Origin: a virus
Taxonomy: Duplodnaviria; Caudoviricetes
Virus record (IMG/VR): IMGVR_UViG_3300025585_000054
Location: 1-55,308 of that record
DNA: 55,308 nucleotides
Strand: one strand, 5' to 3'
Positions 1 to 55,308 of the stretch are shown here, piece after piece; the first letter of the stretch is position 1; each line of letters opens with the position of its first letter. A model generated the notes under the pieces. It was not told where the DNA came from. It ran no database searches and saw nothing but the letters and a program-made list of their open reading frames with translations. A program made the translations under genes and the position numbers.

Positions 1-76
1 CGCTGATCGGGGACGCCCTGCGGATCTGGGAACGACTTATGGCTGAAGTTGAATACATACTTCAATCGGAAGTTTT

Positions 77-280
77 CTACTTACGCTTATCAAGGTTTAC
101 CAAAGAGGGTCGGACAACATAACCATTATCTAAAGCAATCTGCGAAACCCGAGCCCGAGTAAGTCCAATACGTCTACCAATTTCAGCATATGATAAACCT
201 TCGTCAATCATATCTAAAATTTGCTTATTCCTAGCGTAAGTCTTACTCATCTTCTCAGCATCCACAAATTCATTATTCAT
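77..280 (-). CDS. Small HTH DNA-binding protein (sigma-70 region 4-like)
   Basis: GLSYAEIGRRIGLTRARVSQI is a typical sigma4/LuxR-like HTH; overlaps the stop of the upstream ORF. Confidence 0.7.
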   Translation of the reverse strand: MNNEFVDAEKMSKTYARNKQILDMIDEGLSYAEIGRRIGLTRARVSQIALDNGYVVRPSLVNLDKRK

Positions 281-581
281 TATCTAAACCCTTTTCTAAT
301 TTCTCGTGGTATAACCGTCCGTGCTCAGCATCGTTTTTGTCAATTTTACGATATGTTGCACCATTCGGATTAAAGAAGTATTCGTTTAGCGGCCCAACTT
401 CTTCAGTAGAGGGGCCATACTCAAAGATTCTAGCAAACCAAGCTGATGGGGTGAAGCCATACTCTTTATTGAAACGTACCGTCGCAACGCTTGTTGCCTC
501 TTGAGCATCTTGAGCATCATGGATTAAGATAGGCAGTCTAAACTCTACTACCCAATAACTTTTACTTTCTTCTGTTGCCAT
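273..581 (-). CDS. Hypothetical protein
   Basis: 102-aa ORF with GAGGT RBS, in operon. Confidence 0.75.
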   Translation of the reverse strand: MATEESKSYWVVEFRLPILIHDAQDAQEATSVATVRFNKEYGFTPSAWFARIFEYGPSTEEVGPLNEYFFNPNGATYRKIDKNDAEHGRLYHEKLEKGLDNE

Positions 582-588
582 TATTACC

Positions 589-717
589 TCAAATACAAAA
601 TAGGATTAGGATTACGAACGGAAAAAAGATTACAAGCATTACACCAAAGGTAGCAATAAGAATTGCCATAATGGTGAAAAACAAAATATATCTTGCAATA
701 CCAAAGGCTAGCCACAT
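589..717 (-). CDS. Small membrane protein (42 aa, not in ORF track)
   Basis: Manual translation MWLAFGIARYILFFTIMAILIATFGVMLVIFFPFVILILFCI*; fills the gap, with ATG directly after the upstream TAA. Confidence 0.65.
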   Translation of the reverse strand: MWLAFGIARYILFFTIMAILIATFGVMLVIFFPFVILILFCI

Positions 718-2172
718 TTAAACACTATCCAAATCTGCTAGAAGCATCATCAGCCTACCGATACGCCTATCTGCAATATCGCGGAAATGCCTATCGGTAT
801 CGCCATAACCAGTAGTAGCGTGATCGAGCTCATGAACAATAGTAGCCACCATATGCTCCACGCCCAAGTCCAAGGCCCTCACAGAAAGCATAATCTTTCT
901 GTCATCTGCTACCCAGACACCATGAATAGTTTCTTGATGACCACGGGGGGCAAACGGAACAAACTCAATATCATCAGAGATTGTCTCGAAACGACCCACA
1001 ACATTCAACGCCTTAGTCAGAGTGGCTTGACGAACATAGCTCAACTCATCAACAATATCAAAGTCGGCACGAGTGCCCAGAATATTGGAGACATTGAGTT
1101 CTACATCACTCGGGCTGCTGACAATAAGGCGATAGACAATATAGTTATCAACCTCACGTGCAGTTAGACCACGCATCTGAAGCTGAATGGCAAGCTCTTC
1201 CGAATAATGACCTTCGACACCGGAAGGACAAATAGGAATGCAAGTCTCACCATATTGCTCAACCCAAACCTCGGCCCAAGCAGCATCAGACTTCAAATGA
1301 TCGAAATGATACGCTGCCAGACACCACTCCACGCAGGAATCATACTCAGAGCTTTTGTCGAGGATGAAGATATCACGAATAGCATCTTTATCGCTCAAGT
1401 TACGCAAAGCATAGGATGCTACTGAATCAATCTGATAAGCATCAGAGATGCGTCGCTCCTCGTTCAGTCTAAAACCGCTGTGTTGATACGAGAAGATAGC
1501 ACAAGGATCAGCAGTATCACCAATCCAGATACCACCCTTGCCGTAAAGTTTGCCATCAGACACATGAGAAACACACTGCCTAACGGAATCCTCAATTACA
1601 TAGTTCTTGTAAAGACCAATATCCGAACCGCCAGCAGCCTTGGAAATAAAGTCAGGCTTAGCCTCGTGCTTGAAATACAAGTCATTATTATCAAAGAACT
1701 CAAGCAAATCTGGATCGGCAGAGAGATAGACATCGAAATAGCCATCTTTACGTTCAACGCTATCAACAATCTCTACGCTGTAATCTGCACCGAACTCCAA
1801 GTTAGCATCGAGAGCATTCGCAAATGCCTCACGATAAATCTGGAAATCAGTATCCCACGAGATTACACCCGCATCAAGAGAGAAAGACGAAGGGATATCA
1901 GTTACGCCTTCTTCAGTCGTGTAGCGATAGTAAACGATGTCGTAGCCGTCAACATCCTTGGTAATGTAATCCAAGCGGTAATCACCACGGTCATCGCTAC
2001 CGAGACAAATCCACTCAAAACCCTTACGAATAGCAGCAACAGGCGCCAACTTAGCACCCGAGCCAAACTGGCCTACAGTAGATTCATTATCGCGCTTAGA
2101 AGAGATACCCATCTTCTCCAAGCGAATACGCGGCACACAGTCCGCACGGTTACGGAATCGAATATAACTCAC
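718..2172 (-). CDS. GHKL-type ATPase (permuted motif order) fused to a C-terminal HExxH zincin-like domain
   Basis: GISSKRD...GQFGSGAK (lid/G2 box), YREAFANALDA (N box), C-terminal TIVHELDH. Confidence 0.7.
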   Translation of the reverse strand: MSYIRFRNRADCVPRIRLEKMGISSKRDNESTVGQFGSGAKLAPVAAIRKGFEWICLGSDDRGDYRLDYITKDVDGYDIVYYRYTTEEGVTDIPSSFSLDAGVISWDTDFQIYREAFANALDANLEFGADYSVEIVDSVERKDGYFDVYLSADPDLLEFFDNNDLYFKHEAKPDFISKAAGGSDIGLYKNYVIEDSVRQCVSHVSDGKLYGKGGIWIGDTADPCAIFSYQHSGFRLNEERRISDAYQIDSVASYALRNLSDKDAIRDIFILDKSSEYDSCVEWCLAAYHFDHLKSDAAWAEVWVEQYGETCIPICPSGVEGHYSEELAIQLQMRGLTAREVDNYIVYRLIVSSPSDVELNVSNILGTRADFDIVDELSYVRQATLTKALNVVGRFETISDDIEFVPFAPRGHQETIHGVWVADDRKIMLSVRALDLGVEHMVATIVHELDHATTGYGDTDRHFRDIADRRIGRLMMLLADLDSV

Positions 2173-2417
2173 TTATCCTCCTTCTCTGCTGGAACAATAA
2201 ACTCACGGGATACTACGCCAAAGAATCTGCGAGTTTTGGCGTCTTCAATATAAATACCATCTTCAACGTCATGAAATGGCCACCCAAAGGGATATGTTCT
2301 ACGCACAAGCGTAGTCTCTTGTGGATACCAAGGCTTCAAACTTCGTTTGTTTTTATAGTTAGGAATAAACCAATACAATTCTTCTGCTGGTTTCTGATTA
2401 ATCCTAATCCTAGTCAT
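2169..2417 (-). CDS. Hypothetical protein
   Basis: 82-aa ORF coupled to both neighbours. Confidence 0.6.
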   Translation of the reverse strand: MTRIRINQKPAEELYWFIPNYKNKRSLKPWYPQETTLVRRTYPFGWPFHDVEDGIYIEDAKTRRFFGVVSREFIVPAEKEDK

Positions 2418-2686
2418 CAGTAAACATCATCCGGCCAATAAGGTTCTTTCTCGGGAATGTCATCTGCATCATACTCTGGCCTCGTATCGATTTCGCCGTC
2501 CCACTCTTTAGAGCACTGCGGGCACTGAAAGGAATACGTGGCATAAATCGAACCGTAGTCTGCTTCGACTTCAATCTCACCAGACCAACCACAATCGCAA
2601 CTTTCATCGACTGCAGTTTCTCTAGCATTCCATCCGGGTAAATCACTATGAGTTACACCATCAGGAAGATTATCATATCTACCCAT
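2417..2686 (-). CDS. Acidic Zn-ribbon hypothetical protein
   Basis: Start MGRYD after GGAG; CDC...CPQC. Confidence 0.65.
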   Translation of the reverse strand: MGRYDNLPDGVTHSDLPGWNARETAVDESCDCGWSGEIEVEADYGSIYATYSFQCPQCSKEWDGEIDTRPEYDADDIPEKEPYWPDDVY

Positions 2687-3050
2687 CCTCACTCTCCTCT
2701 TCAACCCAAGCGTCACAGTACTCAATATCGAGCAAGTTTACAAAAGCAATATCCTTAATAGCCTTATTTGCAAACTGCCCATCTGCATAGTTTTCAGCAA
2801 ACTTCTTTTGATAATCTTGAATAGCAGCACGCAAAAAGTACATAAACCCAAAACTGCATGCAGAGGTATCATTGATATTAGCATCAAACTTATATTGAAC
2901 ATCAATAGTAAGACGCATACCATTATCTGGTTCCCTCAAGTCAAGGGCTTCCAGAACCTCACGCTTAGCGTCATCTGGGATGTCAGTATTAATAATAACC
3001 TGCTGCACGTAAGCAGTGCTATCACCATCTACATCTGGCCAAAAAGACAT
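2679..3050 (-). CDS. Hypothetical protein
   Basis: 123-aa ORF, TAATG coupling. Confidence 0.7.
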   Translation of the reverse strand: MSFWPDVDGDSTAYVQQVIINTDIPDDAKREVLEALDLREPDNGMRLTIDVQYKFDANINDTSACSFGFMYFLRAAIQDYQKKFAENYADGQFANKAIKDIAFVNLLDIEYCDAWVEEESEDG

Positions 3051-3298
3051 TAGATATCTAACTTTCCCTGCTCATCACAAGGCTTAATATCAGCCTCATT
3101 CACACCAATCCAATAGAAATGCGGAGGGTTGTGGCATTCACAAGCAATACCGACAAACTCATTCATCTTACCGAGAAATCCGGCGCCAATGAAATCATTA
3201 GCATTAGCAGAACGCACAACGGTAAAGACTCTACCGTGCTTTCGCACGATAGAGTCCACCCGTCCCGCATCTAACGCTTCAATAGAAACTTTAGTCAT
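3050..3298 (-). CDS. Hypothetical protein
   Basis: 82-aa ORF, TAATG coupling. Confidence 0.65.
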   Translation of the reverse strand: MTKVSIEALDAGRVDSIVRKHGRVFTVVRSANANDFIGAGFLGKMNEFVGIACECHNPPHFYWIGVNEADIKPCDEQGKLDI

Positions 3299-3735
3299 TA
3301 GGCTTCCTGACTATTTTCATAAGCGACATTTTGCACACCATCAATCCTACCAATAAACGACTCTGCATCGGTAGCTACATCATCGATATCGGTGCCGTAC
3401 TCAATTTCAACGTCAAAAGAGATACGCCATCTGAGCGACGGCATCTCAAGGCCAAGGTCATAGAAAATGCACTCTCGGAGGTATTCTCCAATATCGTTAC
3501 TCATCAACGAACGAATAACGTCTTCCTTGAAAGCTGCAAGAGCACGACCCGACTGCCAATGAGCATTTCGAAGGTCATCGATAGTCTTATTCTTGTTGGC
3601 AAGCGCAATCTCAGCCTCAGCAAGGCCTTGAATCATTGCATCAATTTCAAGTCCACGCTGACGGATCTCTGCTGTCTTAGCCTGAACAGTTTCATTATCA
3701 TTATTAACGGGGAAGGACCCCATAGGCATAGTCAT
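3298..3735 (-). CDS. Hypothetical coiled-coil protein
   Basis: 145-aa ORF, GGAG RBS, TAATG coupling. Confidence 0.7.
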   Translation of the reverse strand: MTMPMGSFPVNNDNETVQAKTAEIRQRGLEIDAMIQGLAEAEIALANKNKTIDDLRNAHWQSGRALAAFKEDVIRSLMSNDIGEYLRECIFYDLGLEMPSLRWRISFDVEIEYGTDIDDVATDAESFIGRIDGVQNVAYENSQEA

Positions 3736-4241
3736 TATGCACTCTCCTTGTTGTTGGAATAGAACTTTTCACTAATACCGTAACCCTTTGCCTGAATGAA
3801 CTCCCAATCAGGCTCAGAGTTATTATTCATATTGATAGTAGTTACTAGCGTTACTTGATTATTATCAATTTTAAAGATAGTCATTGTACTCGAAGGCACA
3901 TCAATAATGTAAGCCCACTCAGCACACCAAAGATCATCTTCCTCAGAACCCGTCCAAGTAACCCAATCTTCTGCACTAGCGTCTGTGTAAATCGTTCCGT
4001 AGCCCGGAACCACATTTCGCAGTTCTTCTCCATTGATAATATCAGGCACTAGCTTACTTTCATTTAGGCTAGACCACTGATAGTTGGTAATGAAAAGCGT
4101 GGCGGCAACTCTTTCGATGCCGTCACGCTTCACTAAATCCCAAATGGCTTTGCCATTATAGGTCGGATACCCATCCCAATGGCAATAACGACCACGAAAG
4201 CCGTCACCATAAGGATGACCAATAATGCTTCTAGTTGACAT
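3735..4241 (-). CDS. Phage hypothetical protein (MSTRS...YCHWDGYP type)
   Basis: N-terminal MSTRSIIG and YCHWDGYP plus EWAY motif, a pattern recalled from a common phage family; start moved to 4241. Confidence 0.7.
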   Translation of the reverse strand: MSTRSIIGHPYGDGFRGRYCHWDGYPTYNGKAIWDLVKRDGIERVAATLFITNYQWSSLNESKLVPDIINGEELRNVVPGYGTIYTDASAEDWVTWTGSEEDDLWCAEWAYIIDVPSSTMTIFKIDNNQVTLVTTINMNNNSEPDWEFIQAKGYGISEKFYSNNKESA

Positions 4242-4548
4242 CTTTTGGACTCCAAGGCATAGCGATAGGATTAATATAATTTTCATGAGGATCACCAACC
4301 ACGTGATAACAAGTATCACAATATGGACCATCAGTCCATTCTTTGTTGGTATCCATAAGAAGCCAAATACCGAGACTATCTACCCCCTTGCAACGTGAAC
4401 AGATATCGTAATCACCATCACGCTTTACAATACGAAGTGCATCTTCTTCATCTTCGTCATACCATAAATCAGAAGCATGAAGCATAAAGTCACGCACAAC
4501 GACTGGCATAAAAATACCGTTGCTAGGTAGGTAGTCTTTGATGTCCAT
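4231..4548 (-). CDS. Zn-finger hypothetical protein
   Basis: CSRC...GIWLL...GPYCDTCY. Confidence 0.65.
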   Translation of the reverse strand: MDIKDYLPSNGIFMPVVVRDFMLHASDLWYDEDEEDALRIVKRDGDYDICSRCKGVDSLGIWLLMDTNKEWTDGPYCDTCYHVVGDPHENYINPIAMPWSPKDVN

Positions 4549-4551
4549 AAT

Positions 4552-4983
4552 CTATGATACCTCATTTCCACCATAGTAATCGTGGCTCATATCAACATAA
4601 CAAGATGAGCAGAGCGGACCAGAGATAATCTCATTATATCCATTACGCTCAACTTCAAGAAGCCACATACCAATAGAACCTTCACGATTACAGTTGCTAC
4701 AAGGCACTGGATTACTATCATCTTCACTATAAGAAGAATCACGAAACTCAATGTCAAGAGTTTCATAAGTAATAGTTCCAGGCTCAATACCAGCATTAGC
4801 AGGATGCCGATACTTAGCATTCTGCTCTTCGAACAAATCGATACGTCGAATCAAAGCGTTACGCTCAGCGTACTCGCTACAACGACGACAAAGAAAGTTC
4901 TTCACTTCAGTATCATCAGGAATACCATAGTTAGTCTGGCACACCATGCAATATGTTCCATCCCAGAACTCAATATCAGTCAT
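4552..4983 (-). CDS. Double Zn-finger hypothetical protein
   Basis: CMVC/CRRC and CSNC...GMWLL...GPLCSSCY. Confidence 0.7.
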   Translation of the reverse strand: MTDIEFWDGTYCMVCQTNYGIPDDTEVKNFLCRRCSEYAERNALIRRIDLFEEQNAKYRHPANAGIEPGTITYETLDIEFRDSSYSEDDSNPVPCSNCNREGSIGMWLLEVERNGYNEIISGPLCSSCYVDMSHDYYGGNEVS

Positions 4984-4986
4984 AAT

Positions 4987-5193
4987 CTAACCTCTTTTCG
5001 GATTGTAGGCTTGTGCGGAAACAGAATCAACAAACATAGGCTGATAGCCAGCCTTATGTCCACAAACAAGAACAATACGATTAGTGCGACTCAATCCTAA
5101 CTTTACGCAGTTATCGGATTGGCACCAATCATACCCTAACGCAATACGCTCAGAAGAAACATCGTTATTATGGCAAAACTTACACTTACTCAT
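4987..5193 (-). CDS. Small Cys-rich protein, first gene of the accessory operon
   Basis: MSKCKFC...WCQSDNC...HKAGYQP; GGAGG RBS. Confidence 0.7.
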   Translation of the reverse strand: MSKCKFCHNNDVSSERIALGYDWCQSDNCVKLGLSRTNRIVLVCGHKAGYQPMFVDSVSAQAYNPKRG

Positions 5194-5240
5194 AAAATAA
5201 CCTCCATTCTGATTCGGATAGGTGTGGCAGGTCAGGGTCG

Positions 5241-5283
5241 AGAATAACACGCGGGAAATCGACTTGTCAAGGCATTTCTTTTT
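5241..5283 (-). promoter_or_regulatory. SigA/sigma70-type promoter of the accessory operon
   Basis: TTGACA-N18-TATTCT with extended TGn and upstream AAAAAGAAAT tract. Confidence 0.7.
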
Positions 5284-5353
5284 GGGTCGCAGAATCGGTG
5301 CTCTCAGATCTCACCGAATGACGCCCCGCCCCGATCGGAAATCCAGACGCCGA

Positions 5354-5386
5354 GGCGCCGATCGGAAGATGCATCCGATCGGCGCC
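5354..5386. repeat. 13-bp perfect inverted repeat within a CCGATCGG cluster
   Basis: GGCGCCGATCGGA-agatgca-TCCGATCGGCGCC. Confidence 0.85.
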
Positions 5387-5563
5387 CAAGCGATCTGGGA
5401 ACAGATTAGGGCTAACTTTGAATATGTATTAGAAATCGATTCTTTTATTTCTATCTCTCAATCTAATCCAAATCAAATGGCCGACATCTGAAACCATCTT
5501 TGAATGCACTTATACTTTACATAAGCTTAGACATTAAGTGCATCATTTTTAGCGTTTAAATTT

Positions 5564-6154
5564 TTACAAATTCCAAGGACTACGACCGCTACCTTGATAT
5601 AAAGACCAAGCTGCTTTAATATTACATTCTGGAACAGTCCAGTCTGTGTGCCCGCACACAGCGAGAAAAATACCGCTATGCATAGGCATCATCATCTGAA
5701 ATAATCCAGATGCACCGGATGCATTTCTTGCAGTCGGGATACACCTTGATTCCCGATACGCAATAGAGATAGCCCATTCTGCATCTCTTTGCCAAATACT
5801 GCGAATCAAATCTGCGTATTGGCAGGGGCTACTACTCCGAGGCTGTTGAGCAACATTTGTCGTAGGTGTTGCTGCTCTTTGTCTTGCCAGCGTTTCCGAC
5901 CGCCTGCGTTCTTCGGCCTGCTGTGCGGCAATTCTATTCTTCTCTACTTGCGTATTCCAGAGAACCACAGCCTCTTGGTGCTCTTGGAATCTAACTCTTT
6001 GTTCTGCCCGAATTTGGTTGAATACCTTTGTGTCGTCAACCACGATACTTTCTCTGGATGCTTTCGGTGAAGCATCCGTATTACTATGTTTATCAGTGAT
6101 TCCACCGATTGATGCTGTTATAAGTAAGATTAAACTCGATAATAATATTCTCAT
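5564..6154 (-). CDS. Secreted lytic transglycosylase (SLT/lysozyme-like fold)
   Basis: N-terminal signal peptide, coiled/low-complexity linker, AYRESRC (catalytic Glu), GASGLFQ, NIKAA...PW. Confidence 0.85.
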   Translation of the reverse strand: MRILLSSLILLITASIGGITDKHSNTDASPKASRESIVVDDTKVFNQIRAEQRVRFQEHQEAVVLWNTQVEKNRIAAQQAEERRRSETLARQRAATPTTNVAQQPRSSSPCQYADLIRSIWQRDAEWAISIAYRESRCIPTARNASGASGLFQMMMPMHSGIFLAVCGHTDWTVPECNIKAAWSLYQGSGRSPWNL

Positions 6155-6217
6155 AATTTCTCCTTCTGCCGGATTATCGGCTATTTTTCGGCTAGCCTAC
6201 TTTGACTCTCCGAATAA

Positions 6218-6266
6218 TTAACAGGGGTAGCCCGTGGGGAATGGGAGTACGGGCTACCCCTGTTAA
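6218..6266. terminator. Strong hairpin, probable terminator
   Basis: 18-bp perfect inverted repeat TTAACAGGGGTAGCCCGT...ACGGGCTACCCCTGTTAA. Confidence 0.7.
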
Positions 6267-6285
6267 AACTTTATAGATTTAGTTG

Positions 6286-6597
6286 TCAGCTACGGCGGGA
6301 AGACTTCTTGGCCTCAGCCTCGATAATCTCATCAACCTTAGCTTCCGCAGTCTTACCTTGGAAGTAAAGCGTCTGCTCATCCTTGCGGTAACGAATTTCC
6401 ACAGCCATTCCAAGATTCTTGGCGGCAGTACGAATCCGTTGCGAGAGCGAGTTGTAATGCTTACCCTCTTCGACGTTCTCAATCGCCTTCGGCTTGCAAG
6501 TCTTAAGCAGTTCCTGAATTTGACGCGTCTCCTCAGAGGCACGCTTGCCCCCGCCACGAACCAACGGCGGAAGCTCTTTCACATCCTTAATGTCCAT
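6286..6597 (-). CDS. Small basic hypothetical protein, possibly DNA-binding
   Basis: 103-aa ORF with AGGAG RBS and its own promoter. Confidence 0.7.
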   Translation of the reverse strand: MDIKDVKELPPLVRGGGKRASEETRQIQELLKTCKPKAIENVEEGKHYNSLSQRIRTAAKNLGMAVEIRYRKDEQTLYFQGKTAEAKVDEIIEAEAKKSSRRS

Positions 6598-6650
6598 ATC
6601 ATTTCTCCTGTGTAACTTGCCGGAGCCCGGTGCCCCGCCTAGTGGTAGGT

Positions 6651-6702
6651 AAGGTACACGCCCCTAAGTACGATTTCAAGTCGGGGCGATAAATTTCTTT
6701 TT
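6651..6702 (-). promoter_or_regulatory. SigA-type promoter
   Basis: TTGAAA-N17-TACCTT, upstream AAAAAGAAAT. Confidence 0.6.
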
Positions 6703-6712
6703 AGCCTCGCAT

Positions 6713-7036
6713 CTAATTCATTTTTTGAGATGCGCTCATATCGCGAGTGTCTTCCAAAAATCTGGTCCGGAAAGCATTTTTCGGCTTGCCTGCCGCAAAA
6801 TATGCGCCACCCCATAGCCCTGTTTCCCCCACCGTAATCGCGTGTTGATAGCACGCCTCACGGACTTCACATGAATTACAGAACCTAATCATTTTTTCTT
6901 TGTTGGCACCATTTGATTTCTCAAACTCCTCAAAGAAGAGCTTTAAATCCTTTTTCTCCTGACGACATTTAGCGTCGTTCATCCATTCGGTGCTCACTTC
7001 CTGAAGCGCTTTCGACCGCCAATTGTTGTCTCCCAC
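6713..7036 (-). CDS. whiB: WhiB-family Fe-S transcription factor
   Basis: W..AKC...FF...C..C.V...C and GLWGG motif; GGAGG RBS, GTG start. Confidence 0.9.
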   Translation of the reverse strand: MGDNNWRSKALQEVSTEWMNDAKCRQEKKDLKLFFEEFEKSNGANKEKMIRFCNSCEVREACYQHAITVGETGLWGGAYFAAGKPKNAFRTRFLEDTRDMSASQKMN

Positions 7037-7143
7037 AATAACCTCCCGTTTGACTTGCGGACCTCTTACTTCCGCCCCCCTACTGCCTCGTAGGTAAGGT
7101 GCGAAGCACCTTACCCCGGCGTGCGCCGCCGGTCCAATCGGAC

Positions 7144-8871
7144 CTAAATCATTTCGATAAGCCAGCTTTCTAAGTCCTCGGGGATTTCCCGACGTTTGGG
7201 GGCGGGCGTTGGCGCTACCTCAGTAATTTTACTAATTGCGTCTTCGCCATCAAAAGTCTCATATTCTATACTATCTGCACCCCAAATTTCAATCTCTACA
7301 TCTTGTGTCATACCAAAATTGGTAATGCATTTGTATACCGCACCAGCTAAAGCATCCGCCTTATCTTTCTCACCTTTTGATGGGTGGTCTACTTTTGTAT
7401 TGTTGATAAGGCGTAATTTCAAAATTTCGCCCTCAATCAGCTGCTCATCCCAGTAGCCACGCAATCTTCCATCATAAATAGAAGTAGATAATGTATCATA
7501 CGCTGACTTCTTCACTGTAAATGCATCAGCATTAATTCCGTTATTCCTTAACGACTGGATCATATCGGCACTTTGCCAATAGTCGAATGTCACTGAAGCC
7601 ACATTAAACTTACGACATAATTCTACAATTGTAGTTCTCACTGCCGAGAACGGAACCTCAGAGTTAACTTCAGCCTTCCATGAGGTTATATAATCCATAT
7701 TAATAATAGGCAGGGTCTCGATGCCCGCACCCGTATTGACTTCCTTCATACCAGACATATGAACCATACATAAAGCAGCCTTGTCTCGTTTCAGACCAAG
7801 GTCTACATGAATAAATCTAGCAAAACCATCAGTACCATTGAACCACGGCTTCCAAGTCCCATCTTCTTCGGTGGGGTTATCTCCATACAAGAATGCCGAA
7901 CGTACACGATCAGGTTCACGGAAGTAGGCGTCTTCCATCTCAGGAGGCTCACATTCAAATCGTGCTCTAGCTTCCCGAGGATTTCTTACATACTCAGATT
8001 CTAAATCTTCACGAGTAATTGTTGGATTAACTTCCCAAGTTGCTTTCTTGATGCCCCAAGTCTTGGGCTCATTATTAGCAATAGCCCCATAATATCTTTC
8101 CTCGATGAAGTCGCCCTTGAATCTAGGGAAGGAAAGGAGCACAACCTTGCCAACGTCCGGAAACCTAGACATAATGGAAGCCTTACTCATCTTATAAATA
8201 GCTGAAGCTGACCCTTTCGCCCTAGCTTCGCCCTTTAGCTCAATATCTGTTTTGAAGGCGGCGATCTCATCTAATACTACTGTCATAACTTCATAGCCCT
8301 CCCATCCTTCAGATTCAGAGTGGCCGGAGAAACATCTAATTGGCCTACTAAAGAAGAAGACTTCACCTACCCTAGGCTCGAATCCAACATCATTGAAGTA
8401 TGGAGAGCGAAGAAGCAAGTTCTTAAATGGCTCGAAGAAAACCCTCTGAGCCTGCTGGGCATTCACAGCAAGGTTCAGAAGGTCGATGTAAACCCCGTGG
8501 GCTTTATTGTAGTAATCGAGCGGATCTCTGAGGCAATGAAGCAGGTACGCGATATATGCAAGGGAAATACGCGAGGTATGGTCCTTGCCACTACCCTTAC
8601 CGAGCATGGCAATAACTTCATTCACCGTATACTTATTATAAATCTCCATACCCTTTTCTTCTCCATGAATTTGGACAAGAGTATGAGGTTTATAAATCTG
8701 GGTAATATGCTTAGCAATCTCTGTCTGAACAGGAGACAGGGGAGGCAAGCCAAGATATTTTCTATCTTGAACAAATACCTCAAGAGGCACAGGCTCTTCT
8801 TCTAGCTCTTCCTTACGAAGAAGTCTATCGAAATCTTCATAGTTAAAGTTTAATCCCCAGAAATCAGTCAT
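7144..8871 (-). CDS. terL: Terminase large subunit
   Basis: Walker A GKGSGKD, Walker B VVLDE, C-terminal RNase H-like HVDLG...D and KVDHP..GEKD.ADA. Confidence 0.9.
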   Translation of the reverse strand: MTDFWGLNFNYEDFDRLLRKEELEEEPVPLEVFVQDRKYLGLPPLSPVQTEIAKHITQIYKPHTLVQIHGEEKGMEIYNKYTVNEVIAMLGKGSGKDHTSRISLAYIAYLLHCLRDPLDYYNKAHGVYIDLLNLAVNAQQAQRVFFEPFKNLLLRSPYFNDVGFEPRVGEVFFFSRPIRCFSGHSESEGWEGYEVMTVVLDEIAAFKTDIELKGEARAKGSASAIYKMSKASIMSRFPDVGKVVLLSFPRFKGDFIEERYYGAIANNEPKTWGIKKATWEVNPTITREDLESEYVRNPREARARFECEPPEMEDAYFREPDRVRSAFLYGDNPTEEDGTWKPWFNGTDGFARFIHVDLGLKRDKAALCMVHMSGMKEVNTGAGIETLPIINMDYITSWKAEVNSEVPFSAVRTTIVELCRKFNVASVTFDYWQSADMIQSLRNNGINADAFTVKKSAYDTLSTSIYDGRLRGYWDEQLIEGEILKLRLINNTKVDHPSKGEKDKADALAGAVYKCITNFGMTQDVEIEIWGADSIEYETFDGEDAISKITEVAPTPAPKRREIPEDLESWLIEMI

Positions 8872-15454: not shown

Positions 15455-18400
15455 CTAACTGGTAATTCCTTTGAGTTCCCTGAATTTCTCCAGCGAAATC
15501 GCATCTTCAAAGATTATATCAGAACTCTTGACCGACTTGCGGTAGATCAGCGGAGCAAATTGATTTCTGACGAGGTGAATCACGGAATTCAGGGTTCGAT
15601 TAAAGATGACGATCTTATAGATCCGATTTTTAACTGGATCGTACATATACATGGAAGCCATGAGCTTGCCCGTCTTGGTGTTGAAAATACGGCACCGCAT
15701 CACAATACCCAGACTCTTCTCGCAGTCAAAATCCCCTACCCCATGCTCAGCCAACTGCTGTGACAAGCCATCGAAAGCACCATCGTTCAAGAGATTAAGG
15801 AAGATTGCAAATTTCTGATCGCTAGGCATAGAGCCGTGAATAAGATCATCAAGCGTGGCGTCCATCCACTTCTGCGGCTCGTCGGTCTGGCAGTAGGCAA
15901 TGACCGATTTATCGCCCACTAAGGCGTAGATGTGTTCACGGGTCTTGAGGTTCATTTCCGTATCACCAAAACCCGTGATTGCCGCTGTAGAATCTTCCAT
16001 CTCCACCCGGAAGTAATGAGGCTTACGCTTGGTGCTCTTGGTTAAAGCACGCACAAAGTGATATTCGTTAGCATCAATATCTACATCGGCGCAGTCCGTG
16101 AGTAGATCCTTAAATGTAGTATCCTCATTGACATAAATAGGATAGTTTAGAACTGGCAGATAGTATTGCTTCTCGTCGTAATCTCCGCTATGACCGATGC
16201 TCGTGAAAGCGCCAACCTTTGTGAGATTCTCGACAACTGTGGAGCGAACGTAAGTCCTACGACACTTTCCATTAAACTCATCGAATGACCCAAAAGGTCG
16301 GTGATGAATAATCTCTTCAAGAGCTCCCTTTCCGACCCCAAGCACATTGCCTAAGCCAAATCTAATGCTCTCTCCATCGAGCGAGAAGCTGCGATCTGAC
16401 TTATTTACATCAGGGCCTTTCACATCGATACCCAGTCTGTTTGCCTCAAGGAGCAGGGTAGCGATACGTTCTTTTTCATTCTCGTTGGCAAGCAGTGCCC
16501 ACATATATTCTAGCGGATAATTGATTTTCAGCCACATGGTCTGGTAGGAGAGTACCGAATAGCCCACCGCATGACTCTTATTGAACATGTATAACGATGA
16601 CTTTTCAAAGTCATCCCACATCTTCTGTGCTGCCTGTTTGGTGATGTACTTGGATGCATTTTCTACGAATTTATCCTTGTAGATATCGAACTCACTACCG
16701 TCACGTTTCTTACCAATAATCTTACGAAGCTTGTCAGCCTCAGACCAAGAGAAATCAGCCAGCATTACTACGGTCTGCATCAACTGCTCTTGATAGATGA
16801 ACGTGCCATAGGTCTCACGCAAAATATCCTCCAGAATGGGGTGAGGATACTCAACAGGTCTAGCCCCACTCTTACAGGCAATATATTGCTCTCCCTGAGT
16901 TAACATAGCACCCGGTCGAACCAAAGCATTAGACACCGCAAGATCGTTAAAGTTATCTACGCCCATCTCCAGCAGCAGCCTCGTGTAAGCAGAAGCTTCT
17001 GCCTGAAAGACTCCTAATGTATTACCATTCCTCAGTTCTTCGTAAACCCGAGGATCTTCCAGTGTCATTGACTCAGAGCGAACATCTAATCCATAACGTT
17101 GCTGCACAGCATTAATAGCATCATCGACAACCGCTACTGCCTTTACACCAAGAATATCAAACTTAATTAGACCCAGTTGCTCTGCCTGAATCATGTCATA
17201 AGCAATGACTTCTACCCTACCGTCAGCACTAGGGTCGGACCTAGTTTCGATCGGGCACACTTGCCAAAGAGGAATATCAGAAACAACGACGCCAGCAGCG
17301 TGCGCTCCAGCAGTGCGAATTCGCCCCTCAATACGACGAGCAATAGTCAGAACATCAGGATATTCATCGACATACTTCTTGCACTTATCCTGAAACTCTT
17401 CCAGCGTCTCAAATAGCGGGGTCATCTTATTGACCTCGTTGTATGGGACACCAAAGGCCCGGCTCACATCCTTGATAATGGATTTAGCCTTAAACTCACC
17501 AAACGTAGAAATCGAGGCAACCTTGTCCCTACCCCATCTATCTTTGATATATTCCTTGACCAGATACCTTTTCCTGTCATCAAAGTCTAAGTCAATGTCG
17601 GGATAATCGTTTCTTTCCTCATTGATAAACCGGGCAAATAGCAAATTGTGGGTCAGGGGGTCAATACTCGTGATATCGAGCGCATACGCCAAAATAGAGC
17701 CCCCTACGGAGCCCCTAGCGGGTCCTCTGGCGATGCCTTGAGAGTCAGCCCATTTGATGATATCCCAGATAATCAGGAAGTAGTCTGAGAAGTCTAGTCG
17801 CTTGATAATTGCCAGTTCTTCCTCAAGTCTTTCCATGTACCCGGGAGCGTCCCGCAGACCCTTTTCCCTGAGGCCCCACTCAGCGATCTCATACAGGTAT
17901 TCATCGCTATTCATAATAGATGAGTACGACGGTAGCAGCTTACGCTTGGTAGCAATCTCAGCATTGCACTTATCTGCCACCTCAAGAGAATTCTCAATCA
18001 GATAAGGCTGGTCCCATCCGTGTTCAGCAAAGTATTGGGTTACCTCTTCGCTAGACATCAGGTATGGATGAATATCATCAAACCGCAATCTACGCTCGGG
18101 GAAGAGCATATTCATGCGCTTTACCAAGTCACGTTCCTTCTTGGCTGCGTCGGCATGCTCACGTAAATGCCGATCAGCAGCAGCATTCATACTTGGAATC
18201 TGAGCAACACACAGCAGAACTTCTTCGATGCCACGGTCGGCCAGCGTTGGATAGTGGCAGTCAATTGTGCCTACAGCCTTAATGCCCATCGCATCGCTGA
18301 AGGACAGAAGGGTCTTGTTAAGGTTTGGTTCATTCCAAGGCTGCAGTTCAAAGTAGTAGTCATCTTTGAATCTGCTATAGAACTGCTGGGCAGTCTTTTC

Positions 18401-18859
18401 GGCCTGCGATTCATTACCGTTCATAATTTGTCTGCTCAGGTACGATGCCATACAGCCAGACAAAACAGTTACGTCGCCAGCGAGATACTCTAAGTCGTCC
18501 CATTCAATGCGTGGCTTGTGATAGAAGCCGTCGCCCCAAGACTTCTGCATAAGCTGGAATAGCTTGTGCAAACCATCTTGATTCTTGGCGTGCATGATGA
18601 GATGGAATCGTTCAGCTTTCTTGTCGTCGCTATCGGACGCCAAGGATGGAACATAGTAAAACTCACAGCCGAAGATAGGCTTTACACCGACACTCTGGCA
18701 CGCCTGTTGAAATTGCAGGGTTCCTGCCATTGTGCCGTGGTCAGTAATGCTTACAGCCGACTGATTATTTCTCTTGGCAATCTGAGCAATCTCAGAAGGG
18801 CGACTCATTCCATCCAGAAGTGAGTATTCGCTATGTACATGAAGATGTACGAAATCCAA
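15455..18859 (-). CDS. dnaE: DNA polymerase III alpha subunit (DnaE-type with PHP domain)
   Basis: FVHLHVHSEYSLLDG, RGSVGGS, PDIDLDF, HAAGVV, KFDILG, YQEQ, FNKSHA. Confidence 0.97.
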   Translation of the reverse strand: MDFVHLHVHSEYSLLDGMSRPSEIAQIAKRNNQSAVSITDHGTMAGTLQFQQACQSVGVKPIFGCEFYYVPSLASDSDDKKAERFHLIMHAKNQDGLHKLFQLMQKSWGDGFYHKPRIEWDDLEYLAGDVTVLSGCMASYLSRQIMNGNESQAEKTAQQFYSRFKDDYYFELQPWNEPNLNKTLLSFSDAMGIKAVGTIDCHYPTLADRGIEEVLLCVAQIPSMNAAADRHLREHADAAKKERDLVKRMNMLFPERRLRFDDIHPYLMSSEEVTQYFAEHGWDQPYLIENSLEVADKCNAEIATKRKLLPSYSSIMNSDEYLYEIAEWGLREKGLRDAPGYMERLEEELAIIKRLDFSDYFLIIWDIIKWADSQGIARGPARGSVGGSILAYALDITSIDPLTHNLLFARFINEERNDYPDIDLDFDDRKRYLVKEYIKDRWGRDKVASISTFGEFKAKSIIKDVSRAFGVPYNEVNKMTPLFETLEEFQDKCKKYVDEYPDVLTIARRIEGRIRTAGAHAAGVVVSDIPLWQVCPIETRSDPSADGRVEVIAYDMIQAEQLGLIKFDILGVKAVAVVDDAINAVQQRYGLDVRSESMTLEDPRVYEELRNGNTLGVFQAEASAYTRLLLEMGVDNFNDLAVSNALVRPGAMLTQGEQYIACKSGARPVEYPHPILEDILRETYGTFIYQEQLMQTVVMLADFSWSEADKLRKIIGKKRDGSEFDIYKDKFVENASKYITKQAAQKMWDDFEKSSLYMFNKSHAVGYSVLSYQTMWLKINYPLEYMWALLANENEKERIATLLLEANRLGIDVKGPDVNKSDRSFSLDGESIRFGLGNVLGVGKGALEEIIHHRPFGSFDEFNGKCRRTYVRSTVVENLTKVGAFTSIGHSGDYDEKQYYLPVLNYPIYVNEDTTFKDLLTDCADVDIDANEYHFVRALTKSTKRKPHYFRVEMEDSTAAITGFGDTEMNLKTREHIYALVGDKSVIAYCQTDEPQKWMDATLDDLIHGSMPSDQKFAIFLNLLNDGAFDGLSQQLAEHGVGDFDCEKSLGIVMRCRIFNTKTGKLMASMYMYDPVKNRIYKIVIFNRTLNSVIHLVRNQFAPLIYRKSVKSSDIIFEDAISLEKFRELKGITS

Positions 18860-19881: not shown

Positions 19882-20024
19882 AACATCTCCTGACAATCTC
19901 TACAAAAATAAACACGAAACCACGCATCCACTTCCTTCTTGAATACGTATTCTCGCCCTACGTTCGTAATGTCCTGCTTTGCCCGACAATGCGAACATTT
20001 GATGACTTTGGGTGAAGGGGCCAC
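19857..20024 (-). CDS. 55-aa Zn-finger protein (not in ORF track)
   Basis: Manual translation MAPSPKVIKCSHCRAKQ...VYFCRDCQEMLWEQEVSG*; GAGGT RBS. Confidence 0.65.
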   Translation of the reverse strand: MAPSPKVIKCSHCRAKQDITNVGREYVFKKEVDAWFRVYFCRDCQEMLWEQEVSG

Positions 20025-20461: not shown

Positions 20462-20465
20462 ATCA

Positions 20466-20507
20466 TATGGATAATGGGGGCTAGGCTAACCTAGCCCCCA
20501 CATCCAT
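20466..20507 (-). terminator. Hairpin downstream of ssb
   Basis: TGGGGGCTAGG-ttag-CCTAGCCCCCA core, extendable by ATGGAT/ATCCAT. Confidence 0.65.
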
Positions 20508-20516
20508 CCCCCTATC

Positions 20517-44457: not shown

Positions 44458-44784
44458 CTACTCCATTGTCTCATAGCCTATACTAATAGGCAAAAAGCCG
44501 AGGTCATTACTCCCGGCAATATTATAACCTTGTTGTGAGGGGCTGTCGTCAGAAACATCGGCACCCATTGCCGCAGCCATTGTCTTCATAAGCCTCTGCT
44601 GGCGCTCCAAGGTTGAGTCATACAACTCCAAAAGTTCCTCCAGAGTGAGAGAATCTTCCATCTGATAAAAGTTAATCCATGCCCCGCATTCGCAAAAAAC
44701 TTCTTTTTCATAGGTAAGGAGGGGGAGGTCATCAAAGTGAAGTCCTTCACCCGATGACGACCCCCCCTCCGTTACTCGTTTGGG
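44458..44784 (-). CDS. -1 frameshift extension of the tail chaperone (GT-like)
   Basis: From CCCAAAC (44778-44784) the -1 frame is open: RVTEGGSSSGEGLHFDDLPLLTYEKEVFCECGAWINFYQ then MEDSLTLEELL... Confidence 0.85.
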   Translation of the reverse strand, partial: PKRVTEGGSSSGEGLHFDDLPLLTYEKEVFCECGAWINFYQMEDSLTLEELLELYDSTLERQQRLMKTMAAAMGADVSDDSPSQQGYNIAGSNDLGFLPISIGYETME

Positions 44785-52642: not shown

Positions 52643-54871
52643 TTATGCTTTACTGATTAATCTCCACCTTGAAGCTGTTGAATCCCAAATAAAATCTAAA
52701 TCTACTCTTGTAGTCGTGAATGTAGTAGGGAGAGTGACTGTACTCGCCACAAATTTAGCTGCATCCCATGAAAGTGCTGGTGTGCCGCTTGAACTTTTGA
52801 GGTGAATATGTAACATGTCTCCTTCACTTGGGGTACCAGTTGCTGTAAAGGCCGTAGTCACAGCATTCGTTTGAGCTGTGATACCATATAAAGCAACATT
52901 GTCAGTATTGACAGAGGGAGCCGCTGTTGCATCTGCTACTAATAATGGCTGCCTATCTACAGAGCGCCCGGTCGGACGAGAAGCAGAATAACTTTCTACC
53001 GTTGTAGTAGCAGATGCCCTCCAGTTTGACTTGGAAACAACATTGGTAGATGAACCAAGGAAATAAATATATGCAGCTCCGTAATTTAAGCTTCCTTCAA
53101 ATTGATTATTTTCAATAGTAATACCGTCAGCTACATTACCAAGACCTGTTACTACAGTAGATGCATCTACTACAATACAACGCAGTGATGGCAATCTATT
53201 AGATGTCTGACCTGAAGACGGGCTAAACGAAAATAAATTATTAGAAATATTTACATTATAAGATGATCGCAGTCTAATGAACGCACCGGGTTGATATATT
53301 GCGTCTTCAGTGCCACTAGCAATACTGGCCGGTGATCCGGCATAAAAATAGCAATTAGTCATAGTAACACCACTAACTGCGTCTAATGCAATAACAGCAC
53401 CAGCATTAACACTATTGCCTCCGGACGTTCTATTGGCTTCAAATTTACAACGATCGAAAACAATTCGATAAGGACGCTGCTGGGATGTGTAAGTAATGGC
53501 AGGATCTTTGCCGCTAACAGTTAAATGACGAAGCATTCCATTTTCAAACCAGCCGTCTCTAAAGACAATATTGTCTGCGGTCCACGAGCCTTCGTTGTCC
53601 GAGACCATTAAACCAGCAATAGCTGAATCTCCATCTGCATTCGAAGATGAACCGCAGTCGTCAATACGAAATCTTTCAACGGTGCCGTCTGAGGCTCCAT
53701 TAAAATACATGCCGTATCCACGACAAGAAGATATTTGCAAATCGGCTAAGTAAAAAATATTTACCCACTGAACCTGCAGTCCTGTAACGTTGGCAAATCC
53801 TTTGCCGTCAATAGATATATTTGTAATTGTATAATTTGTTCTAGTTCTGCCTGTTCCGGGGTCGCTAGCGAACGGCTGAATTTTTAACATTGGACCACTT
53901 ACTGCTGGGACGGCAGCTTTATTGTACTTTAATCTTGTTCCCCCATCTCCAGCGCTATTATTATATCCTCTAGAATTGCTGGTACCCTGAAGCATCATTT
54001 TCACATAAAAAACTCCACCAACTCCGTATGCTAAATTTAATACATTTAAATCATCGATATAAAAAGTGCCAGCGGTTAACTTAACATTGAAAATACCATT
54101 TGCTCCAGCGTAACCAATAGCAGTCATAATTGTGTCTTCATCGTTTGACCCTGCACATACATAGTCAGCGGCACTCTTCAATGTTGCCGGAGCATCACTA
54201 GCAGCGACTAGAACGTATGGGCGGGTATTTTGAAGAGTTGCCGATCCGCTAATCGTTGTTGGCTCCCACTGAGAAGAGGTGGAGTTCCAAGCGATAGCCT
54301 GACCTGAAGTTGGAGCGGTAGATGCAACAGTTCTATTTTGAATTTTAGCAACCGTTGGAGCCGAAGCAGTACCAGCTAAGTCACCGGCTAACTGAATAGC
54401 TCCTTTGGCGCCTGTAGTAGCGTCCGAAATACTGATTGCGGGCGTAGTTCCACCAGAAGAAACAATAGGTGCAGTTCCTGTTACTGCTGTGACCGTCCCT
54501 CCTCCACCGCCAGAAATTGTGGCTGGTGCCCATGCCGTTCCATTCCACGCAAGGGCCTGCCCCGCAGTTGGGGCGGTGCTGGTCACAGAACGTCCTTGAA
54601 TTTTTACGACAGTAGGGTTTGGCATAGTGCCACTTAAATCACCACCGGCAGTAGTTAATCCGCTAATGCTAGAATCCATTGCGGCAATTTTTGTTGCTAT
54701 ATTAGCTGAGGCGCCTTTGGCAGTCCTTAAATCGCTAGAGATCGCAGCGACTTCTTCCTCTACCGCTGTGTGATCGGCGGCATGAAGGTCAGTACCGTCT
54801 GACTGGACGGCGGTTGTAGAGCTTGTAGGGTTTCTAAATGCCCTTCCACTATTGGGATATGATGCAGTCAT
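52643..54871 (-). CDS. Fibre/spike protein with beta-helix (pectate-lyase-like) domain
   Basis: Duplicated GDL.GT...PTV.KIQ...P..GQA.AW module, ADYVC.G..DE.I..A, parallel beta-helix repeats. Confidence 0.7.
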   Translation of the reverse strand: MTASYPNSGRAFRNPTSSTTAVQSDGTDLHAADHTAVEEEVAAISSDLRTAKGASANIATKIAAMDSSISGLTTAGGDLSGTMPNPTVVKIQGRSVTSTAPTAGQALAWNGTAWAPATISGGGGGTVTAVTGTAPIVSSGGTTPAISISDATTGAKGAIQLAGDLAGTASAPTVAKIQNRTVASTAPTSGQAIAWNSTSSQWEPTTISGSATLQNTRPYVLVAASDAPATLKSAADYVCAGSNDEDTIMTAIGYAGANGIFNVKLTAGTFYIDDLNVLNLAYGVGGVFYVKMMLQGTSNSRGYNNSAGDGGTRLKYNKAAVPAVSGPMLKIQPFASDPGTGRTRTNYTITNISIDGKGFANVTGLQVQWVNIFYLADLQISSCRGYGMYFNGASDGTVERFRIDDCGSSSNADGDSAIAGLMVSDNEGSWTADNIVFRDGWFENGMLRHLTVSGKDPAITYTSQQRPYRIVFDRCKFEANRTSGGNSVNAGAVIALDAVSGVTMTNCYFYAGSPASIASGTEDAIYQPGAFIRLRSSYNVNISNNLFSFSPSSGQTSNRLPSLRCIVVDASTVVTGLGNVADGITIENNQFEGSLNYGAAYIYFLGSSTNVVSKSNWRASATTTVESYSASRPTGRSVDRQPLLVADATAAPSVNTDNVALYGITAQTNAVTTAFTATGTPSEGDMLHIHLKSSSGTPALSWDAAKFVASTVTLPTTFTTTRVDLDFIWDSTASRWRLISKA

Positions 54872-54908: not shown

Positions 54909-55100
54909 TTAAGTAGCAATCTCATAACCGTAATAAGCACGCAATTCTTCAGGTTCTGCGGTGCGGAAGCGTGAACTTTCCAGCAGAGTTTCTGCTTCAC
55001 GCTCTTCTACTAGCTGATATGGGTGTTCTCGCGTAAACACAACTCCTGATGCCGTCGAATACCCAACGCCACTCTCCATGTATAAGAGAATTTTGCTCAT
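54909..55100 (-). CDS. Small protein after the capsid gene
   Basis: MSKILLYMESG...FTREHPYQLV; TGCTATACT -10 just upstream. Confidence 0.7.
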   Translation of the reverse strand: MSKILLYMESGVGYSTASGVVFTREHPYQLVEEREAETLLESSRFRTAEPEELRAYYGYEIAT

Positions 55101-55117
55101 ATCATATAAGTATAGCA

Positions 55118-55145
55118 GAAGGCGGCCCCGTAAGGAGCCGCCTTC
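55118..55145 (-). terminator. Hairpin after the capsid gene
   Basis: GAAGGCGGCTCC-ttac-GGGGCCGCCTTC. Confidence 0.7.
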
Positions 55146-55168: not shown

Positions 55169-55308
55169 TTAGAGGCTGCGCACCTTAACGTTACGCATGT
55201 GAACGTAAGCCTCAGCGTTCTCAATCTGGTTCGCAACTCGGATGAACTGCGTGTACTCGATTGTGTCCTTCTTAGGCTTGAACTCGCGGTAAACCACGAT
55301 GTCACGCT
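55169..55308 (-). CDS. Major capsid protein, C-terminal fragment (runs off the window)
   Basis: Manual translation RDIVVYREFKPKKDTIEYTQFIRVANQIENAEAYVHMRNVKVRSL*; HK97-like C-terminus; followed by a terminator. Confidence 0.75.
   Translation of the reverse strand, partial: RDIVVYREFKPKKDTIEYTQFIRVANQIENAEAYVHMRNVKVRSL

Follow-up and report, generated by a model that had tools for sequence, protein, structure and literature searches.

The repeat and the cassette that it borders

The window analysed here is the whole of IMG/VR virus record IMGVR_UViG_3300025585_000054, a single contig of 55,308 nt on which the minus strand carries nearly all long open reading frames (ORFs). At its left end a diverged repeat occurs once in each of the two intergenic regions flanking an accessory cassette of about 13 small genes (77-5193, minus). 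The first gene of this cassette codes for a Cys-rich protein of 68 aa (4987-5193, minus) and the last for a sigma-70-region-4-like helix-turn-helix (HTH) protein of 67 aa (77-280, minus). The intergenic region before the cassette is designated IG1 and that after the HTH gene IG2. Copy 2 of the repeat (5377-5444, minus) lies within the 370-nt gap of IG1, between the SLT/lysozyme-like transglycosylase gene (5564-6154, minus), which is the last gene before this region, and the first cassette gene. Copy 1 (5-75, minus) stands in IG2 directly after the HTH gene, beginning 22 nt beyond its stop codon. Both copies are on the gene-sense strand.

As reported in a preliminary description of this DNA, positions 23-65 and 5392-5434 are identical at 31 of 43 bases without gaps, and GATCGG..CGCCC precedes both copies (5-19 and 5377-5387, the latter with a 3-nt gap). 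The similarity proved longer than first noted, with 41 of 65 bases identical over 11-75 and 5380-5444; with the 3-nt gap it reaches back to positions 5 and 5377. Both copies were also found in contigs of a 2023 lake run from another study (X5), as a piece covering 5237-5623 with no differences and a piece covering 9-267 with two.

Copy 2 adjoins a perfect 13-bp hairpin with a 7-nt loop (5354-5386; arms 5354-5366 and 5374-5386, loop 5367-5373), which is the core of a longer imperfect stem at about 5323-5416. The sense RNA of this hairpin gave -58.8 kcal/mol and a z-score of -5.7, fold z-scores being calculated for 126-nt sense RNA. The contig contains the palindrome CCGATCGG three times, against 0.45 expected, and all three lie within the 52 nt of 5331-5382, two of them being the hairpin arms. 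Covariance models of Rfam 15 gave no match at E<=1 on either strand of 1-7300. A search with the hairpin pattern of the 185,579-species GTDB genome collection gave 18 single matches (seven in Microbispora, six in Streptomyces and five in others); with single matches per genome only, the pattern was rejected both as a repeated element of the host and as a clue to the host. At copy 1 the GC-rich start of a presumed stem-loop arm (19->1, minus) is cut by the contig end.

Downstream of the hairpin a promoter of the sigma-70 type, P1, is predicted at 5241-5285 (minus). It comprises an A-tract, TTGACA (5270->5265), an 18-nt spacer and TATTCT (5246->5241), with a consensus score of 10/12 and a TG before the second hexamer (extended -10). 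Promoters of the same style, with an A-tract, TTGAAA, then GCGTGT and then TAnnnT, were seen at 6679->6651 and at about 24290 (minus); by their sequence they suggest an early/middle promoter type which is shared and not limited to the cassette borders.

Conservation of the element in related phages

Two relatives carry the same gene block in the same order as the window: L001, an IMG/VR contig which also appears as L008, L009, L011 and L012, and L010, a 6.8-kb metagenome contig found by a metagenome scan. Genes of L010 share 80-92% DNA identity with the window, and the HTH region 68%. The unbiased test of the repeat was a hidden Markov model (HMM) search in which the model was built from the two window copies only and run against both strands of 56 kb of relatives. 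Its two best matches, L010 435-458 and 5726-5774, fell in the intergenic regions equivalent to those of the window and in the sense orientation; as a rough estimate, the odds of two top matches within about 500 nt of the 112-kb search space are near 1 in 100,000. IG2 of L001 ranked 15th. The sensitive profile search of relatives proposed in the preliminary description has revealed further copies in IG1 and IG2 of L010 and in IG2 of L001, and the suggestion of a repeated cis element bracketing an early accessory operon is supported, the element being present in three related phages.

The strict pattern TATTC[AC]A-N19-CCA[AG][AT] was found at five distinct places, all in the sense orientation: window IG2 (55->25, where copy 1 reads TATTCAA-N19-CCCAGA), window IG1 (5424->5394), L010 IG1 (446), L010 IG2 (5733) and L001 IG2 (13695). 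It was absent from the rest of the window and of L001-L010 on both strands, and only two matches were obtained in both strands of 905 kb of unrelated viral loci. When a model of all five copies was run on the window and six related loci, nothing new reached E<0.01. Viral and metagenome contig collections gave no match to the exact degenerate repeat pattern. Nothing was found with the HTH protein as query, and an alignment of HTH proteins, an alignment of the Cys-rich proteins and the first protein of cassette 2 retrieved only the contig already known as L001.

On the sense strand the five copies consist of an eight-base purine/pyrimidine alternation, TATTCMA (box A), exactly 19 bases and CCA(A/G)(A/T) (box B), a motif which can be written (RY)4-TATTCMA-N19-CCA. 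Summed self-similarity was 40 of 90 positions at an offset of 23 and 8-33 at the 16 other offsets tested (15-31), so that the two-box element is an imperfect 23-nt tandem direct repeat. A third, degenerate copy (ATTCAAA-N19-CCA), likewise sense-oriented, precedes copy 2 by 82 nt (5478-5505, read 5505->5478, minus). It is one of eight matches to a relaxed pattern in both strands of 120 kb, two others of which are chance-looking matches in coding sequence, and it was not recovered by the HMM at E<=10. A lone box-A-like sequence at about 19935-19951 (minus; intergenic 19897-19957) is a perfect 12-bp palindrome, GAATACGTATTC, with no box B at the usual distance. Readings of the boxes as ECF-type (GGAAC..GTT), sigma-28 or IHF sites, judged by eye against consensus sequences, were rejected, spacing or bases not being kept across copies. 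GATC is not depleted in the contig (187 found, 207 expected), and the HIP1-like signal GCGATCGC is absent from it.

Around the motif little else is retained. None of L010 399-663, which is almost all of IG1, was aligned to the window by blastn, and the IG1 regions of the two genomes can be aligned only at box A (16/19, the best local match) and in the stretch adjoining the start codon. In these comparisons the two-box motif persists while the surrounding intergenic DNA turns over completely. A stem-loop or long imperfect palindrome follows or encloses most copies, with a sequence that differs from copy to copy; the fold z-scores for L010 were -9.3 in IG1 and -2.6 in IG2. In L010 the whole unit of two boxes plus hairpin, which follows immediately on the HTH stop codon, is surrounded by a perfect 10-bp inverted repeat (5713-5722 and 5803-5812).

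Of 59 aligned positions, 38 are identical between the window copies, 32 between the L010 copies and 24-31 in pairs from different genomes. A GC-rich segment adjoins both window copies (63% over 5290-5400 and 73% over 1-30, in a contig of 43%), while the intergenic regions of the relatives have 39-48% GC and the segment is absent from L010 and L001. That the window copies are the most alike and that the GC-rich segment is unique to the window fit either homogenisation or co-evolution with a genome-specific binding factor.

The promoter is conserved as well. P1 recurs upstream of the orthologous gene in L001, and the 16-nt upstream/-35 word AAGAAATSCCTTGACA has a single occurrence in the window but two in L001, one ahead of the cassette and one following the HTH gene; the A-tract AAAAAGAAAT stands immediately 5' of the -35 at each of these three sites. 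In L010 the -10 block is retained in IG1 as well as in IG2. The distance from box A to the promoter -10 downstream of it is 155-184 nt. A wider search with the 16-nt word gave 103 stretches, about the number expected by chance, and the motif lay upstream of it only in the L001 contig.

The preliminary description had offered, as one possibility, a cis element that delimits exchangeable cassettes. The part concerning the borders holds, the element being present at both; exchange of the cassette is unproven, as it is syntenic in all three phages and no copy 1-copy 2 joint occurred in contigs of four runs, contigs being a form of data from which rare forms are dropped. The gene replacements that were seen lie inside the cassette or swap the intergenic region itself. 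Among contig variants from the same samples, one has 5197-5563 replaced as a unit (joint 5196->5564), its loose end matching an L010-type intergenic region; others have a joint 2279->3048 with 985 other letters and a joint 4236->4793 with 245 other letters.

A proposed operon-boundary module and its alternatives

The repeat is conserved at the same places in relatives, sense-oriented and non-coding, and its promoter is conserved. It is probably the visible part of a duplicated non-coding operon-boundary module in which a recognition motif is combined with a stem-loop and an early promoter, a reading based on five copies from three genomes of an uncultured phage lineage. In sense order such a module would lead from the two-box motif through the stem-loop or imperfect palindrome to a host-type sigma-70 promoter with extended -10, which, at about 155-184 nt after box A, would drive the next block of small genes. 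The stem-loop may terminate or weaken transcription that arrives from upstream and insulate the early promoter that follows. In the two-box motif, sequence and orientation are conserved whereas base pairing is not; it is therefore probably recognised by a protein, either as DNA or in the nascent RNA immediately before the hairpin. Beyond position 1, a hairpin and another promoter would be expected to complete copy 1, on the model of L010 and L001.

Several observations weigh against this module. Across the whole contig, the window pair by itself does not exceed what chance would give, and the L010 matches had E-values of only about 0.8 each. Both the strict pattern and the period of 23 nt were set with knowledge of all five copies, and the element occurs in three phage lineages only. 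IG1 of L001 has the promoter, but the five-copy HMM gave no two-box motif there. The records behind L002, L003, L005, L006 and L007 gave two matches to the relaxed pattern, both antisense, against four in a reversed control; the upstream parts of two of these more distant records have nothing in common with the cassette. IG2 of L001 has no stable structure (z +0.19), and the stem-loop is thus not universal. The 13-bp hairpin is followed by no T-run on either strand, and a terminator scan was blank at 5354-5386. Finally, the promoter block of L001 IG2 is closer to that of window IG1 (score 34) than to that of L001 IG1 (score 26), so within-genome homogenisation is not general.

The alternative that the pair is a chance similarity of two AT/GC-mixed stretches with no shared function draws on the scan of the whole contig, in which the best ungapped +1/-1 score of the pair was 20, which placed it second of all direct diagonals, while four other pairs scored 19; three of nine second-order Markov random genomes also had a top score of 20. 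When the 76-nt fragment after the HTH gene was compared with the 370-nt intergenic region the score was 21, which none of 1000 dinucleotide shuffles reached (mean 8.7, maximum 15), in a test restricted after the fact to these two regions. The spacing of the boxes is exactly 19 nt in all five copies. Since the copies flank the same cassette in the same orientation and their L010 equivalents ranked at the top, the pair is more than chance; given its context it is real, and a coincidence is highly improbable. A small palindromic mobile or recombining element (MITE- or REP-like), inserted in both intergenic regions and alike through recent insertion or gene conversion, with no regulatory role, would account for the GC-rich segment beside both window copies, for the closeness of these copies to each other, for the imperfect palindromes of 85-126 nt which enclose or adjoin the motif, and for the replacement of IG1 as a unit in the co-occurring variant. 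Yet L010 and L001 have the two-box core but no GC-rich hairpin, so the core is older than the GC-rich segment. Moreover, the 55-kb contig has no further copies, no target-site duplication was seen, and the hairpin pattern gave only single matches per genome in the GTDB collection, so that a mobile element is unlikely.

A replication origin, or another single-purpose DNA site made of an iteron pair and a palindrome and duplicated in the early region, is suggested by the two imperfect direct repeats adjoining an inverted repeat and by the position beside early promoters. Compared with iteron-type repeats, each site has only two units, with a period of 23 nt (40/90 versus 8-33) that was found post hoc; no adjacent initiator gene was recognised, cumulative GC skew does not turn in this region, and two copies 5.4 kb apart are unexpected for an origin, which makes this alternative very unlikely. 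A coding function had been proposed in the preliminary description, namely a family of hairpin-gated antisense micro-proteins on the plus strand. The translations read as quoted there, and the 40-aa ORF (5369-5491, plus) does open with an ATG at 5369 that sits in the hairpin loop and does end at 5491; at copy 1 no stop interrupts the frame before the contig ends, and IW-x8-EY appears at the same spacing in all five copies. But in this frame a stop follows directly after IW in two of the five (L010 IG2 and L001 IG2), the open stretch of L010 IG1 contains no ATG, and each of the six frames is interrupted by stops in two or more of the five copies. The argument from synonymous and conservative changes fails as well, the 22 mismatches between the window copies falling 9/6/7 on codon positions 1/2/3 with no third-position bias. 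Among 5.8 billion proteins, searched in the range of 22-70 aa, the 40-aa product found only itself, and Pfam gave no match at E<=0.1. GGAAG abuts the ATG with no spacer, and promoter-like sites on the plus strand of 1-7300 (18) are not above those in shuffled sequence (13.8 +/- 3.5). The ORF was judged non-coding and an antisense micro-protein extremely unlikely; the conserved residues (IW...EY) are the two conserved DNA boxes read in frame. Apparent conservation of a short antisense ORF from one copy of a cis element to another can arise as an artefact of this kind.

The operon-boundary module invites comparison with the promoter-early stem-loop (PeSL) of T4-type phages. As described, the PeSL is a short repeated element composed of a strong early sigma-70-like promoter, an AT-rich tract upstream of the -35 and a terminator stem-loop, and PeSL cassettes adjoin small genes of unknown function in variable regions and mediate shuffling (Arbiol et al. 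2010, PMC2839356; Comeau et al. 2014, PMC4122927). The stem-loop is there placed within, overlapping or immediately beside the promoter, and five subclasses are distinguished (PMC2839356). PeSLs number about 50 in a genome, concentrated in hyperplastic regions, with recombination yielding indels or mini-circles. Shared with the window are the consensus-like sigma-70 promoter, the AT-rich tract directly upstream of the -35, and an intergenic region that is, in the window's lineage, a hot spot of replacement. Against these likenesses, the window hairpin lies about 85 nt upstream of the -35 (5270), with a similar distance in L010 (85-115 nt overall, in a module of 210-370 nt); the 55 kb hold two sites and one degenerate copy rather than tens; and the two-box direct repeat has no counterpart in that description. 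Recombination between copies, documented for the PeSL, was not seen here in the contigs of four runs, with the reservation made above on contigs, and the window phage, with its WhiB, DnaE-type polymerase and single gene strand, is not T4-like. We infer that the module may work like a PeSL without being a member of that class. If so, the early accessory genes of uncultured freshwater phages with WhiB, probably of Actinobacteriota, would be arranged in a similar way to those of T4-type phages, with repeated terminator/promoter cassettes in both and an additional conserved recognition motif here.

Nut sites of the lambda type consist of a linear boxA and a boxB hairpin just downstream of early promoters. 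The window element resembles them in the order of its parts on the transcribed strand, where a conserved linear box immediately precedes a hairpin, in occurring as two copies per genome, and in that copies within a genome are more alike than copies from different genomes. It differs in standing at operon ends, 155-184 nt upstream of the next promoter, and no N-like protein was identified; likeness to boxA or boxB in sequence was not seen either, no test aimed at it having been made. A nut-like reading of the linear box and hairpin as genome-specific pairs is possible by analogy. More tentatively, and with low probability, two boxes and hairpin could form a phage-specific site for a phage protein, for example the HTH protein beside copy 1, that reads it in DNA or in nascent RNA and switches operon-end hairpins between stop and passage. 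Early cassettes of freshwater actinophages would then be under a control of the nut or roadblock type that co-evolves within each genome; the same unit could also be a crossover point for swapping intergenic modules and cassettes between co-occurring strains. With its GC-rich perfect 13-bp stem and 7-nt loop directly after an operon, the hairpin is also like an intrinsic terminator, but, lacking a T/U tract after it on both strands, it does not qualify as canonical. A canonical terminator with a T-rich tail does occur in this phage, after the capsid gene.

The source contig

The runs in which the window contig occurs are freshwater and lake metagenomes, and none of the 22 runs listed is an RNA run. 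Besides the genes at the locus, the window encodes a WhiB-like protein (6713-7036), a DnaE-type polymerase (15455-18859) with best matches in Streptomyces phages at 39% identity, a beta-helix tail-fibre-like protein, a DnaB-like helicase, an exonuclease and a head-tail adaptor. The WhiB-like protein, the polymerase matches and the GC content of 43% suggest a phage of freshwater Actinobacteriota. Nothing similar to window 1-8000 was found at the DNA level among deposited phage genomes, and a search for tRNA and tmRNA genes found none.

The contig is a genome fragment. Its right end holds the last 46 codons of a major capsid gene (55171-55308, minus), cut at the contig end. In five related loci (L003-L007) similarity to the window begins abruptly at 55308, with 94-98% protein identity there in the best frame, and alignment to these relatives places 55308->55171 at the 3' end of a longer gene. 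The full gene in L003 codes for a capsid-type protein of 342 aa, with a protease/scaffold gene and a portal gene upstream of it; the window lacks both of these and the remainder of the capsid gene. At the left end, Logan contigs of runs X2 and X3, 2812 nt in length, cover 1-1816 with no differences and extend 996 nt further left, and those of runs X1 and X5 begin at window positions 4 and 9, respectively. Because the capsid gene is cut at 55308 and public contigs continue beyond the left end, position 1 is an assembly break and no genome end, and copy 1 of the repeat is consequently cut short. A circular genome, to which an ORF apparently spanning the joined contig ends might point, is ruled out by the capsid gene of L003-L007 and the 996-nt extension; the 4-nt CGCT common to both ends is due to chance. 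As a practical warning, this 55.3-kb 'genome' is a fragment without portal, protease and most of the capsid gene.

After the capsid gene a terminator-like hairpin at about 55100-55135 (minus) is followed by TTCTGCTAT; its stem is kept through paired base changes at the equivalent place in L003, L005 and L006. At the 3' end of the capsid gene 155 nt of DNA are nearly identical across the relatives, neighbouring genes showing only about 60% protein identity. The strongest direct repeat of the contig (54285-54385 versus 54543-54643, 64/101, period 258 nt) lies within the 742-aa beta-helix tail-fibre-like gene. Most of the larger intergenic gaps contain long GC-rich hairpins, namely those at 6155-6285, 7037-7143, 20462-20516 and 44662-44771 (minus), as in the 16-bp stem around 6190-6235; these are probably operon-end structures.

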